Of a stretch of 7,740 nt of DNA, positions 3,125 through 7,740 are shown in pieces; position 1 is the stretch's first letter, and the number at the start of each line of letters is the position of its first letter. Both the position numbers and the translations under genes were made by a program. The notes beneath the pieces are model-generated. The model made no database searches. It was given only the letters and a program-made list of their open reading frames with translations, and was not told the origin of the DNA. Origin of the DNA: Candidatus Odinarchaeia archaeon (GTDB lineage: Archaea; Asgardarchaeota; Odinarchaeia; Odinarchaeales; Odinarchaeaceae); the NCBI GenBank assembly GCA_029856525.1, contig JAHQXC010000063.1, positions 1-7,740 of the forward strand, in the 5' to 3' direction.

Positions 3125-3165
3125 TTTATCATCACGCTGATTTTTAATATTTTATAATAGTCTAA

Positions 3166-3179
3166 TTTAACCGGTTAAA
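3166..3179. promoter_or_regulatory. Perfect 14-bp palindrome TTTAACCGGTTAAA in the divergent get3/profilin intergenic region (candidate operator)
   Basis: Read directly; lies about 42 nt upstream of the get3 start. Confidence 0.35.
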
Positions 3180-3180
3180 A

Positions 3181-3200
3181 AGTTTTTGAAAGATTTTGAA
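3181..3200 (+). repeat. 10-bp tandem direct repeat AGTTTTTGAA / AGATTTTGAA
   Basis: Two adjacent units, 9/10 identical, with one helical turn periodicity, next to the palindrome. Confidence 0.4.
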
Positions 3201-3241
3201 AAATTATTTTGTAGTACCGCAACATTTTTTAACAGATAAAT

Positions 3242-3286
3242 ATAAAGATTTAAATTAAATAGATCGGATAAAATCCTGTAAGGTGG
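3242..3286 (+). promoter_or_regulatory. Candidate profilin promoter and RBS: BRE-like ATAAAGA (3242-3248), TATA TTTAAATT (3249-3256), SD AGGTGG (3281-3286)
   Basis: Archaeal BRE-TATA order, with the expected TSS (about 3278) just upstream of the SD and the ATG at 3291. The region is AT-rich, so other TATA-like words also occur. Confidence 0.45.
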
Positions 3287-3290
3287 TAAT

Positions 3291-3650
3291 ATGAGTGTTG
3301 AAGAAGTTGCGAAGAGTTTAATTACAGGAGACATAGGAGCGACGGCTATTATTTCAATGACAGGGGAGGTAATATATCAAACCCCTAATTGGAGCGTTGA
3401 CGGCGCTCATGCAATCAACACGTACAAGAACAGGGAGCCGAATATAATTATACAAGGAGTGAAATATTCGGTTATAGACGTTAACGAAGACCGTTTAATA
3501 GCTACAAATGTAGGAGGGCAGGGTCATATAGTAGGAGCGGCTATAGGAGCTAAGGGGCTGTTACTCGGCTATGTTAGCCCTAACGGTGACGCGAGAACCG
3601 CTTATATTCAAATAGATAAAGCAGCCAGACAATTATCAAAAATATTGTAG
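3291..3650 (+). CDS. pfn: Asgard archaeal profilin (actin-monomer-binding protein)
   Basis: 119 aa. 'TAIISMTGEVIYQTPNWSV', 'IIIQGVKYSVIDVNEDRLIATNVGGQGHIVG' and 'LLGYVSPNGD' match the profilin pattern (IxGxKY, G-rich hairpin). From memory it is very similar to the Odinarchaeota profilin characterised by Akil and Robinson. Good SD and ATG start. Confidence 0.93.
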   Translation: MSVEEVAKSLITGDIGATAIISMTGEVIYQTPNWSVDGAHAINTYKNREPNIIIQGVKYSVIDVNEDRLIATNVGGQGHIVGAAIGAKGLLLGYVSPNGDARTAYIQIDKAARQLSKIL

Positions 3651-3663
3651 AATAATAAACTAG

Positions 3664-4410
3664 TTAAGAGTGTGCGCCGAATAATTTCCTAGCTTTCTCC
3701 ATTAACCTGATAAATCTCTTCTGAATATTATATTTCTCCTCCACTCCGCCGAAGGTTGAAGATTCGGCTACTATCAATCGATCCCCTTTAACTTTTACAC
3801 TGCAGAGCCTAGTGTTAGCCGCGTCAATCATGTAACGCTCAGCTTCACGAGTAATCCTTATATCATTATAGGTTAATAGAATGGAAGCTAATAATACTCC
3901 TAGCCTCCTGTAGCCGGCTTCATATAGTTTCTCTGAAGAACAGCTTTGAGTTGAAGAATTAATCCTCCCTTTTAACTCTTCTATTGGACGTATTATAGTC
4001 TCGCTTCTGAAATCGGGAGATTTAATCCGGGGGGTTTCAACAGGAGTTTTAAATACAGGTTTAGGCGGAGGCCTAGTTAAAATTGATTTCAACTGTTGAA
4101 TTTTTGACTGCCTTATCTCAGCTCCCTCTTCTACATCTATTATTATAAATTCTTTACACTTGTTTCCTATAACACTGTTATTCAGCGGATATCCGAGACG
4201 CCTTACGAAATTAGCAGCTCTCATCCCAGCTCGTCGATGAATAAGAGTTGTATTCGAACCTATGAAAAGCCAGTTACAGGCGTAATCTTCATCCACGACT
4301 AATATAATAGAATCTTCGGCTAGTATCGGAGGGCCGTCTATTATTTTAAGCCCGCCGTCTGAGCTTATAGTAAAAGCGAATAAATTCCGACCTTGACCCA
4401 ATAAAATCAA
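3664..4410 (-). CDS. Gelsolin/villin-like domain protein with Pro-rich linker and unassigned C-terminal domain
   Basis: Residues ~9-111 follow the gelsolin repeat pattern: 'LAEDSIILVVD' ~ LxSxDxFILD; 'NWLFIGSNTT' ~ IYxWxGxxS; long basic helix 'LIHRRAGMRAANFVRR'; 'DVEEGAE' ~ VxEGxE. Linker 112-160 contains RPPPKP, TP, TP and SP. Residues ~161-248 form a further alpha/beta segment. Start is TTG 4410 or TTG 4401. No HMM search was run. Confidence 0.68.
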   Translation of the reverse strand: MILLGQGRNLFAFTISSDGGLKIIDGPPILAEDSIILVVDEDYACNWLFIGSNTTLIHRRAGMRAANFVRRLGYPLNNSVIGNKCKEFIIIDVEEGAEIRQSKIQQLKSILTRPPPKPVFKTPVETPRIKSPDFRSETIIRPIEELKGRINSSTQSCSSEKLYEAGYRRLGVLLASILLTYNDIRITREAERYMIDAANTRLCSVKVKGDRLIVAESSTFGGVEEKYNIQKRFIRLMEKARKLFGAHS

Positions 4411-4413
4411 CCT

Positions 4414-5328
4414 TTAATAGTAGTCAGCGCTCGCCAATCCTTTTAACTCAGCTATAAGATTGACAGCCGCGGTTGCTCCCTGACCTACAGCGGTAGCTAT
4501 CTGCCGTACACCACCCGTGCAATCACCGGCTGCGTAAACTCTTGGAAGATTGGTCCTCTGCTTGCTATCCACTTTAATATACCCGCCCTCTAATATTATA
4601 CCCATTTTCAAAGCGATATCGGCTGCGCTTGAAGAACCTATAGCTATGAACACACCGTCACATTTAACAGTTGACCCGTCTTCTAATATAATCCCCTCTA
4701 ATTTTTTACCTCCTGTAAAAGAGATTATTCTCTGAGTTTTCAACTCTATATTTTTAGCTTTAAGTTTTTCAAGTAAACCTTCATCTATTTCAGGTTTCAA
4801 CCCGTTAGTGTAAATTGTTATATCAGATGTGTAATCTGTTAATTCAAGCGCCTCCATAGCAGCATAATTCTTAGAGCCGATGACAAAAACCTTCTTTCCG
4901 CGGAAAAAGAAGCCGTCGCATGTCACACAGTAGCTTATCCCTTTTCCTTCAAATTTCTCCAGGTTATTTATATCTATCTTCTTATATTCCACACCCATGG
5001 CGATTATAAGTCCTTTAGCCGCGTAAGAGGACCTATTTGTTTTTACAACGTATAGGTCATCTTGCATTTTAACGCTGAGAACCTCCTCGTTCACGGTTTC
5101 ACTTCCTAAAAGCCTTATATGCTTGCAGCCTAATTGAATCAACTCTTTTCCGTCTATACCTTCAGGGAACCCTAAGTAATTGTAGACTCTACCTATCTTA
5201 TAGTTTAAACAACCTCCTTTATCGATTAGAAGAGTCTTATAATTAGCTCTACTAGTGTAAATCGCCGCGGATAAACCAGCAGGGCCCCCTCCTATAACAA
5301 TAACATCATAAGTTTTCAAAAATAACAC
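4414..5328 (-). CDS. trxB: Thioredoxin reductase-like FAD-dependent disulfide oxidoreductase (TrxB family)
   Basis: FAD motif DVIVIGGGPAGLSAA, redox motif GKGISYCVTCDG, C-terminal TNLPRVYAAGDCTGGVRQIATAVGQG. Likely true start is TTG at 5319 (MKTYDV...) behind GAGGTG. Confidence 0.88.
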   Translation of the reverse strand: MLFLKTYDVIVIGGGPAGLSAAIYTSRANYKTLLIDKGGCLNYKIGRVYNYLGFPEGIDGKELIQLGCKHIRLLGSETVNEEVLSVKMQDDLYVVKTNRSSYAAKGLIIAMGVEYKKIDINNLEKFEGKGISYCVTCDGFFFRGKKVFVIGSKNYAAMEALELTDYTSDITIYTNGLKPEIDEGLLEKLKAKNIELKTQRIISFTGGKKLEGIILEDGSTVKCDGVFIAIGSSSAADIALKMGIILEGGYIKVDSKQRTNLPRVYAAGDCTGGVRQIATAVGQGATAAVNLIAELKGLASADYY

Positions 5329-5343: not shown

Positions 5344-7107
5344 TTATTTAATTCTCTTAAGCTGATTATTATACATTTCGATTACTTCTTCCTCGGTGGT
5401 GCTCTCCTCAGGGGATTTATCGTCTCTTATACGCCCTGTGAAACGGGGGAATCTTATAGCTATTCCAACACCGTTTTTAATCTTAGAAAAAGCGCATGTA
5501 TGAACAGGGCTTAGAGTTAACTCCGCGCCCTTCACCTCTATTACAAGCTTAGGGAGAATCCAGAAGTCTGGTTCAAGGTTTGTTTCAACTCTAGGATGTT
5601 TAGACTTTATTATAAGCGGTTTTAAAATACTGGATAAGTATGAGAGATCTTCGTCTTTAAACCCGCTTCCAACTCTAGCCACTGTTTTAAAAACATCGTT
5701 AACATGATCGTAACAAGCCAGTAGAAGGGTTCCATAAGTTCCCGCTCTTCTACCTTTTCCAACGTAAGCGCCCACGACAACCAAGTCAAGTGTATCTGTA
5801 AGTTCAGATCTGTAATCACGCTTATATTTTATCCAAAGCCAGCCTCTGCCACCAGCCTGATAGAGTGAGTCCTCTGATATAGATTTCGCGATAACTCCTT
5901 CACATCCAGCTGACACAGCTTCATGAAAGAATTTTTCGAATACATCCACATTATCTGTGATTATTTGAGTGGCTAGTTCACATCGCTCATCTACGTTAAC
6001 AATTTTTTCCAGGATGCTACGTCTCTCAAGATATGGTTTATTAATCATTTGCTGGCCTTCATTATACAAGCAGTCAAAGAAGAAGAGTTTAACAGGATAT
6101 GATTCCATCGCTTCTTCAACTTCATATTTTCTACGCCTATGCATTAACTGCTGGAAGGGGAGTATCTCCCCGTTATCCGGGTCTACAGCCACACATTCCG
6201 CCTCGGTGATGCAGTTTTCCGATTTCAAATATTTTTTTATTATCTCCACGGCGTCAGGGTATTGATCTGTTATAACCTCTAAACGTCTAGAGAATATTTT
6301 AATCTCCGAACCTTTCTTGTGAATTTGGAATCGCTCACCATCATACTTGTATTCGACAGCGCATCTCCCTATTTTCTCGAATATCTCCTCTATTGTTGAA
6401 AGCCTTTGAGCCAGCATCATTCTAACAGGTACACCTACTTGCAACTGAATTGTTTTAAGCCATTCAACTCCGTTTAAAAGAATATTCTTAGCTATTAAAC
6501 CGAGATCCGAGCAAATATTATAGGAGTGTTCTATATCCTCTCGACTAGCCTTACTTCCAGCTAAAGCTATCGACAATGCATCCATGATAGTCATGTCAGC
6601 TATACCCAGCCTCAGATTACCTGTAACTATTCTAGAAATATACCGGGCTTCTAAAGGTGTAGCCCTATGCAGTAGACCTGAAAAAAGCCTTTTTTTATCT
6701 TCACTCGATCCTTTACCAGTCATCCGCGCGATTTTATCTAGTTGATTATACACGTATTGGACTGTTAAAGGCTCGAAATCCTGTATTATTGTTTTTTGAA
6801 CCTTGCTTTTTAAAGCCTTCTCCGCAGCTAAACCGATGTCACCTGTCTCCTGTAGAAAAGCTGTTACTTTTTCAAGCGACAGCCCGCTTGCAGCTGATAT
6901 AACTTCTAAAACAGTTTTCTCAGCCATCCCTATCTCAGGATACCCATACCAGTCTGGGTGGAGCTTACCCTGAGTCATATATATTACTTTATCTATCTCC
7001 TCTGAGTTAAGCTTGGATATGAGCTCTTTAAGAATATCAGTTAACTCTAATCTTTTAGTTGTATCCTCTAGTCTTCGATAATATTCTGAGACTTCTCTGA
7101 AAAGCAA
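5344..7107 (-). CDS. lig: ATP-dependent DNA ligase (archaeal; DNA-binding, adenylation and OB domains)
   Basis: Motif I EYKYDGERFQIH (K254), III EAECV, IIIa FFFDCLY, IV EGVIAK, V WIKYKRDY, DLVVVGAYVGKGRR, IRFPRF. SD GCGGTGAT at 7111-7118, TTG start. Confidence 0.97.
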   Translation of the reverse strand: MLFREVSEYYRRLEDTTKRLELTDILKELISKLNSEEIDKVIYMTQGKLHPDWYGYPEIGMAEKTVLEVISAASGLSLEKVTAFLQETGDIGLAAEKALKSKVQKTIIQDFEPLTVQYVYNQLDKIARMTGKGSSEDKKRLFSGLLHRATPLEARYISRIVTGNLRLGIADMTIMDALSIALAGSKASREDIEHSYNICSDLGLIAKNILLNGVEWLKTIQLQVGVPVRMMLAQRLSTIEEIFEKIGRCAVEYKYDGERFQIHKKGSEIKIFSRRLEVITDQYPDAVEIIKKYLKSENCITEAECVAVDPDNGEILPFQQLMHRRRKYEVEEAMESYPVKLFFFDCLYNEGQQMINKPYLERRSILEKIVNVDERCELATQIITDNVDVFEKFFHEAVSAGCEGVIAKSISEDSLYQAGGRGWLWIKYKRDYRSELTDTLDLVVVGAYVGKGRRAGTYGTLLLACYDHVNDVFKTVARVGSGFKDEDLSYLSSILKPLIIKSKHPRVETNLEPDFWILPKLVIEVKGAELTLSPVHTCAFSKIKNGVGIAIRFPRFTGRIRDDKSPEESTTEEEVIEMYNNQLKRIK

Positions 7108-7149: not shown

Positions 7150-7740
7150 CTATTTTTCTATAAATACTGCTATAGGTACACTTGCTCCTCTAAGCTTCTC
7201 ATAGTATTCTTCATACCCCATATCTATTTTCTGATTTCCAGGCGCTCCTACAACGATGAGAGCCGAGTTTTCTTTAAGCTGTTTATAAACTGTTAAAATC
7301 CATTTATCTGTTCTCGTAATTAACTTCTGAGCGATCGTGATAGGTGGATGAGATTTATAAGCTGAGTAGAGTTTCTCGAAATCTAAGAAATGTAGTAAGA
7401 GAAAGTTTACTCTATTTAAAAGTTTAATCGCCTTAACATAGGTTTCAGCGTCATCTTTAGCCGGTATCCTAGTTAAACTACCATCTAAAAAATCCATGCT
7501 AGCGGAGCATCCTATGAAACTTGTTTTCAAATTATTTTCAGCAAGATAATTGAATAAATTAAAACCGGTGCCAGCTAAACCACCGTTTAATATAGTAGCC
7601 ATTATATTCTCTGTAGAAGGGTTATTAGAGTTTAATAAAACAATAGCTTTCACATTCGCGATAATAAACTTGGGTTTATAATAGACGCATTCGAAAAGAC
7701 CGAAGTTATCTAAAAGAACCATAACTATTTGGTCATACCT
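7150..7740 (-). CDS. Alkaline-phosphatase/metalloenzyme-superfamily fold protein, 5'-truncated by the window, probably catalytically degenerate
   Basis: The frame is open from the window edge (RYDQIV-MVLLDNFG). Order of elements matches the AP/iPGM/NPP fold: VLLDNFG, PST..ATILNG, LFNYL..NLKTSFIG, DD, FLLLHFLD, RTDKWI, ALIVVGAPGN, VP. The expected DxxGH and ADHGN ligands are replaced. Confidence 0.55.
   Translation of the reverse strand, partial: RYDQIVMVLLDNFGLFECVYYKPKFIIANVKAIVLLNSNNPSTENIMATILNGGLAGTGFNLFNYLAENNLKTSFIGCSASMDFLDGSLTRIPAKDDAETYVKAIKLLNRVNFLLLHFLDFEKLYSAYKSHPPITIAQKLITRTDKWILTVYKQLKENSALIVVGAPGNQKIDMGYEEYYEKLRGASVPIAVFIEK

Follow-up and report, generated by a model that had tools for sequence, protein, structure and literature searches.

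The window analysed here is the whole 7,740-nucleotide stretch of contig JAHQXC010000063.1 (assembly GCA_029856525.1) from Candidatus Odinarchaeia archaeon. It corresponds to contig C115 in a genome of 1.32 Mb that is 93% complete, and its 7.7 kb carry nine genes. Eight of these lie on the minus strand, and the sole plus-strand gene encodes profilin (3291-3650; 119 amino acids; TAG stop codon at 3648-3650). The profilin gene converges on an open reading frame (ORF) of 248 amino acids on the minus strand (3664-4410), which runs from a TTG at 4410 to a stop codon at 3664-3666. As read from the sequence, a spacer of 13 bp (3651-3663) separates the two stop codons. Both ORFs, their convergence and this spacing are as described in an earlier reading of the same stretch (the original prediction). 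The public annotation of the 248-residue ORF begins at TTG 4401 and gives a protein of 245 amino acids (P0001); an AAGGT Shine-Dalgarno-like motif is better spaced from this start than from TTG 4410. The ORF closes a compact array of co-directional genes. In this array an ATP-dependent DNA ligase gene (5344-7107, minus strand) is followed after 15 bp by a gene for a thioredoxin-reductase-like flavoprotein (TrxR; 4414-5328, minus strand) and after a further 3 bp by the ORF. The ORF is interpreted here, with a probability of about 0.7, as the Odinarchaeial member of an Asgard-wide family, GelX type A, and its pairing with profilin as one surviving edge of an ancient ligase/GelX/profilin neighbourhood.

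When the ORF alone is the query, Pfam and PDB sequence searches give no match, and a word-indexed search returns only three Odinarchaeial proteins. An exhaustive HMMER search with the alignment of these proteins returns 80 cluster representatives (clustered at 50% identity). The possibility that the ORF is not a real gene was rejected on this conservation, since related sequences occur in 344 of 400 genomes of the phylum. The named type A members come from Odin-, Hel-, Ran-, 'Hod'- and Asgardarchaeia metagenome-assembled genomes (MAGs), and all are labelled 'hypothetical'. The original prediction had anticipated this label; the public records carry it for the window ORF, which Pfam misses.

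The N-terminal part of the protein (residues 7-112; 4075-4392, minus strand) forms a gelsolin/ADF-H-fold domain in the AlphaFold2 model, with a mixed beta-sheet at its centre flanked by one long and one short helix, and it has a predicted local distance difference test score (pLDDT) of 71-84. The closest structural match is the Thorarchaeota (Thor) ProGel structure 7C2F (Z 10.3, root-mean-square deviation 2.9 Å, 87 of 88 residues, 20% identity), which is also matched by Foldseek (E 1e-4). The top 30 structural matches are all gelsolin or ADF-H domains. Next come domains of fragmin, gelsolin, adseverin and villin with Z 8-9, then ADF-H domains with Z 5-7. Profile comparisons agree with the structural matches. 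A profile of 49 type A members matches the 7C2F sequence at E 3.2e-5, the only PDB sequence below E 1e-4. HHalign aligns the type A profile to a profile of ProGel and type B domains (type B is described below) with 98.4% probability (E 4.2e-15), and the latter profile matches villin, gelsolin and 2DGel at E 1e-19 to 1e-16. The gelsolin-like N-terminus proposed in the original prediction is thus confirmed by structural, profile and Foldseek comparison.

Nine positions are conserved among the 49 type A members (G19, D40, E41, W47, G51, R60, R64, A66 and G73). In the columns of the gelsolin DWG motif, D40 is conserved in 96% and G51 in 100% of sequences, and W47 is conserved two residues before the column that aligns with the ProGel Trp. 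The window protein and ProGel share the pattern hDExxxxxW/Y-L-W-x-G (with Phe49 at the motif Trp in the window protein), followed by a (R/K)(R/K)xxxxRxA helix. ProGel is a bare domain of about 92 amino acids that binds actin weakly; in the window protein a linker and another folded domain follow the gelsolin domain. The fold is shared with eukaryotic gelsolin/villin and ADF/cofilin, and the same mode of binding at the actin barbed-end cleft is expected for the window protein. Eukaryotic gelsolin and villin have three to six domains, whereas the window protein has one.

The gelsolin domain is followed by a linker (residues 113-158; 3937-4074, minus strand), delimited by the AlphaFold2 model and the alignment, that is modelled with low confidence and is Pro/Ser/Thr-rich. 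A linker motif, (I/L)IRP(I/L)(E/D)E, is kept among the Odinarchaeial homologues only, and in most relatives the linker is a longer Pro/Ala/Lys/Glu tract. A near-invariant 'P142' in the wide alignment is an artefact of aligning Pro-rich low-complexity linkers. The linker was also considered as a docking site for profilin; this is unsupported, as the RPPPKP run is not kept even in the closest homologues (47-57% identity), although it may hold in other lineages.

The C-terminal domain, or domain X (residues 159-248; 3667-3936, minus strand), is predicted by AlphaFold2 to consist of a helix, a four-stranded antiparallel sheet and a second helix. When the C-terminal 90 residues are modelled with a 50-sequence alignment, the pLDDT is 92.8 and the predicted template modelling score 0.84. 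Domain X has no convincing fold match in the PDB, the AlphaFold DB clusters or the ESM Atlas. The best PDB structures reach Z 5.7 and are mixed, unrelated chains with a faint frataxin-, KA1- or XisI-like resemblance, and Foldseek against the PDB gives E of 0.1 or higher. Among the AlphaFold DB clusters, the first three matches alone are convincing (E 1e-6 to 1e-3). These lie at the C-terminal ends of unnamed or uncharacterised proteins and are probably the family itself. The ESM Atlas gives DUF5655, DUF1801 and PHA_gran_rgn at a template modelling score of about 0.5. A further protein of the window genome, of 232 amino acids (G000:C24; L047:2202-2900, plus strand), has domain X at its N-terminal end (profile E 1e-35), after which come a Pro-rich linker and another region. 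This makes domain X a mobile module that is not tied to gelsolin domains.

The genes, the gelsolin fold and the domain architecture of the window protein are certain. By architecture the protein is a 1DGelX in which only the N-terminal domain matches gelsolin. Asgard proteins with one gelsolin domain and a domain X, named 1DGelX or GelX, have been published (PMC7444086, PMC9433394, bioRxiv 10.1101/2025.11.30.690169), so the kind of protein in the undescribed system suggested by the original prediction was already on record. ProGel, 1DGelX (a gelsolin domain joined to an unknown domain X) and 2DGel were defined by Akil et al. (2020, PNAS), who stated that Odin has similar architectures (PMC7444086). 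In the same study, neither nucleation nor severing of actin by Thor 1DGelX depends on Ca2+, and the published single-domain Asgard gelsolins are Ca2+-independent (PMC7444086). Like these proteins, the window protein is Asgard-specific and has one gelsolin/cofilin domain at the N-terminus, joined through a long linker to a C-terminal domain X that is not a gelsolin domain. Ca2+-independent actin regulation is expected of it as well.

Two separate families with the 1DGelX layout are present in the same genomes. In type A, to which the window protein belongs, the gelsolin domain shares 21-28% identity with the ProGel-like protein of the same genome, and the C-terminal domain is the alpha-beta4-alpha one. 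In type B, the gelsolin domain is 40-51% identical to ProGel, and the C-terminal region, also conserved, is a different one. In three genomes of family f31, type B is 49-51% and type A 21-27% identical to ProGel. The profile of the C-terminal domain matches type A only, not type B. The identity of Thor 1DGelX to ProGel is given as 35% in the PNAS paper (PMC7444086) and 47% in the preprint (bioRxiv 10.1101/2025.11.30.690169), and, judged by these sequence identities, Thor 1DGelX probably fits type B better than type A. Type A may be biochemically uncharacterised and distinct from the Thor 1DGelX that has been studied.

The window genome encodes at least three gelsolin-fold proteins, together with one profilin and one actin. 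In addition to the window gene, these are a type B protein of 286 amino acids (G000:C91 = L048:1056-1916, minus strand) and a ProGel-like protein of 83 amino acids (G000:C9 = L049:1309-1560, plus strand). The type B protein has a ProGel-like N-terminus and a C-terminal region common to the 305-324-residue proteins of family f31. A genome survey stated that gelsolin is absent from Odin LCB_4 (PMC8813620), whereas the Robinson group noted Odin gelsolin orthologues. The stated absence is explained by the Odin gelsolin-fold proteins falling below Pfam detection.

The window profilin matches PDB 5ZZA chain P, from the Odin profilin/actin structure, at E 1.4e-63 over residues 1-119. It is 84% identical over its full length to the profilin of Ca. 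Odinarchaeum LCB_4 (P0088; PDB 5ZZA; Akil and Robinson 2018), of which it is the orthologue, and the LCB_4 chromosome has the same flanking genes. It comes from another species of the same genus, and its Pfam score lies just below the cut-off (22.6 bits for Pfam Profilin, cut-off 25 bits). Such a sub-threshold score is usual for Asgard profilins. The gene is preceded by an AT-rich intergenic region of 166 bp (3125-3290, plus strand) with TATA-like AT tracts and a GGTGG Shine-Dalgarno-like motif at 3284-3288. Read directly from the sequence, this region is probably the profilin gene's own promoter and leader. The window profilin is an ordinary Odin profilin whose gene is probably transcribed separately.

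The synteny of ligase, GelX and profilin was compared in 55 genomes across the phylum. Profilin was found by profile in 53 of these, and a full-length type A gene is present in 36 genomes of 16 families, on which the adjacency counts rest. The ligase-TrxR-GelX-profilin block is collinear in six Odinarchaeial loci, even where the outer flanks differ. TrxR sits between ligase and GelX in the genus of the window genome and in two Odinarchaeial metagenome loci (L009 and L010); in the other family of the same order it does not. GelX and profilin are adjacent in three of the 16 families, in a different orientation in each: convergent in f1 (3/3 genomes), divergent in f17 (2/2) and co-directional in f19 (1/1). 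The f1 adjacency is also found in five Odin metagenome loci. The arrangement is thus not confined to the window genome; the original prediction had counted such confinement as evidence against itself. In sister family f2, an inversion of the ligase and GelX block has left GelX and profilin about 10 kb apart, and in the 12 other families the two genes are not adjacent.

The ligase is the commonest conserved neighbour of GelX across the Asgard families. It is adjacent to GelX in eight of the 16 families (f1, with TrxR between; f2, 3/3 genomes; f8; f18; f19; f20; f21, 4/4; f22, 5/5) and in 19 of the 36 genomes, so that the ligase linkage of GelX is at least as strong as its profilin linkage. In three further families (f14, f15 and f16), ligase and profilin are adjacent with no GelX between them. 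None of the three linkages is present in f31 (0/7 genomes), among others. The outer neighbours vary between lineages and so act as a built-in control, and ligase, GelX and profilin recur. A gene with no Pfam family at the window end (7150-7740, minus strand; cut by the window end and about 238 amino acids long in relatives) recurs less often. It lies close to the ligase in f1 and f2, which belong to the window's order, and in the distant f18 and f19; its relatives at L004:2533-3249, L044:13581-14303 and L061:11045-11767 stay near the DNA ligase gene. The ligase/GelX/profilin linkage is not described in the literature searched.

That the GelX-profilin adjacency is a chance juxtaposition without information is extremely improbable. 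Most Asgard lineages lack the adjacency, which fits chance. A given gene is expected as an immediate neighbour by chance at a rate of only about 2 in 1,500-5,000 genes per genome, however, and here three genes recur as neighbours in 12 of 16 families with differing outer flanks. The sampled families are not near-identical genomes, because their ligases are only 40-57% identical. The adjacency of the three genes survives changes in order and orientation, which hints at some selection. Because the ligase is adjacent to GelX in eight of the 16 families and profilin in three, the window pair is seen as a remnant of a three-gene neighbourhood. Different lineages would have kept different pairs of this ancient neighbourhood, with decay differing from lineage to lineage. 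The adjacency is judged likely to be such an ancestral remnant and not the mark of a dedicated, co-regulated pair.

The original prediction proposed a two-gene actin-turnover module. Part of it stands, as the gelsolin-fold partner is real and the adjacency recurs. In a dedicated module of this kind the tight convergence would itself be functional, with overlapping 3' ends or transcriptional interference, for example, balancing a monomer-binding factor against a capping or severing factor. Retention of the adjacency in three families despite rearrangement into three orientations (f1, f17 and f19) hints at selection on the pair. The spacer is always short in the six Odinarchaeial loci (13-50 bp, including 15-50 bp in the loci other than the window), and the structures 5ZZA and 7C2F lead to the expectation that profilin and GelX use the same actin surface. 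Against a module, the genes converge and so have no shared promoter. They therefore do not form an operon, which would place them on the same strand under one promoter, and GelX is instead co-directional with TrxR and the ligase, 3 bp behind TrxR in the ligase-TrxR-GelX array. The pair is unlinked in 13 of 16 families, including sister family f2, all Loki-like genomes (f21 and f22) and all f31 genomes. The profilin that adjoins GelX in f17 and f19 is a different paralogue from the one with the best match to the Odin-type profile. A dedicated, co-regulated module is accordingly considered unlikely.

The ligase linkage raises a different alternative, in which GelX type A is not mainly an actin regulator and has a part in replication, repair, chromosome handling or cell-cycle timing together with the replicative DNA ligase. 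The gelsolin fold would then serve a non-actin partner, as it does in Sec23/24, which has a gelsolin-like domain. The ligase is the most conserved GelX neighbour and is often co-directional with it, with gaps of 50-120 bp, and the gene order swaps between lineages (ligase to GelX in f2, GelX to ligase in f21 and f22). The divergence of the type A gelsolin domain, which lies below Pfam detection, and the absence of a known fold relative for its C-terminal domain also fit this alternative. The type A domain nevertheless retains the long-helix signature seen in ProGel, its homology to the actin-binding gelsolin domains of Asgard archaea is clear, and no DNA- or ligase-binding feature was found in GelX type A. 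Profilin, an undisputed actin regulator, is in the same neighbourhood. Since profilin is itself the neighbour of the ligase in f14-f16, the ligase linkage is not specific to GelX. A main role outside actin regulation is regarded as very unlikely.

For GelX type A as an actin regulator, the following mechanism is proposed. The conserved long helix of the gelsolin domain (R60-x3-R64-x-A66...K70) would dock between subdomains 1 and 3 of Odin actin, in the barbed-end cleft. Thor ProGel and gelsolin G1 bind in this way, and the neighbouring profilin uses the same actin surface. The linker and C-terminal domain may add a second contact, to the filament side, through self-association or with another partner. 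Through such a contact, a single domain that binds weakly could become a factor that severs, caps or nucleates, probably with no calcium control. It is judged likely that the long helix binds actin at the barbed-end cleft in competition with profilin, and that the linker and C-terminal domain contribute a second contact.

Several observations weigh against the interpretation of the window gene as a type A GelX that regulates actin within a decayed neighbourhood. Actin binding, capping and severing are predicted from the fold, and the proposed independence of Ca2+ and the part played by the C-terminal domain are likewise predictions. Pfam PF00626 (Gelsolin; gathering cut-off 21 bits) does not match the window protein even at E<=1, and it matches only two of the 49 family members (best E 0.0012). 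The residue aligned with the ProGel Trp of the DWG motif is Phe49 in the window protein and Trp in 78% of the family. As Thor 1DGelX fits type B better, its activities may not transfer directly to type A. The Thor-like family f31 has type A GelX with neither the ligase nor the profilin linkage (0/7 genomes), and the persistent ligase linkage is not explained by a role in actin regulation.

A more far-reaching version of the preferred interpretation would give the ligase linkage a function. The ligase/GelX/profilin neighbourhood would predate the split between the Odin, Heimdall-group and Loki-like lineages and would have been kept by selection. Type A would then be an uncharacterised actin regulator, distinct from Thor 1DGelX, that couples actin dynamics through its C-terminal domain to DNA replication, chromosome handling or the cell cycle. 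This version is quite unlikely to be correct.

The remaining window genes, all on the minus strand, encode a Yip1-domain protein, an EamA transporter, a YjbQ/UPF0047 protein and an ArsA/Get3 ATPase. In one Odinarchaeial MAG (L010:7417-9954), genes for an arginyl-tRNA synthetase and an Arf-family small GTPase lie between profilin and ArsA/Get3. In other Odinarchaeial loci (L004:10580-12533; L005, L007 and L009), the Yip1 gene is followed on its 3' side by a cluster of E1-like (ThiF), E2 (UQ_con), ubiquitin-like and RING-finger genes, which is the known Asgard ubiquitin system.

Type A paralogues are clustered in some genomes. Three are present in family f14 genomes (G100:C2:2032-7097 and G101:C24:58409-63499) and two stand in tandem in a Ranarchaeia MAG (L012:4320-6123). 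No profilin is present among the small ORFs of unknown family beside GelX at L011 and L012, of which the second at L012 is the tandem GelX paralogue. Several Loki-like genomes (G149, G207, G189, G135, G250 and G126) have one to three in-frame stop codons inside the six-frame ligase match, which may be true breaks, errors of sequencing or the match extending beyond the ORF. The actin gene of the window genome is split across two contig ends (C3 and C8). In G303, an LCB_4-like closed genome, the actin ORF (L054:1441-2601) diverges from every relative over its last approximately 35 residues and ends early, which looks like a frameshift or assembly error.

The type A family is widespread, and its C-terminal domain is well predicted and has no recognisable fold relative; assays of the family may never have been made. 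The family is recurrently linked to both profilin and the replicative DNA ligase. With one actin and one profilin beside its gelsolin-fold proteins, the small window genome holds a minimal, tractable set for Asgard actin regulation.

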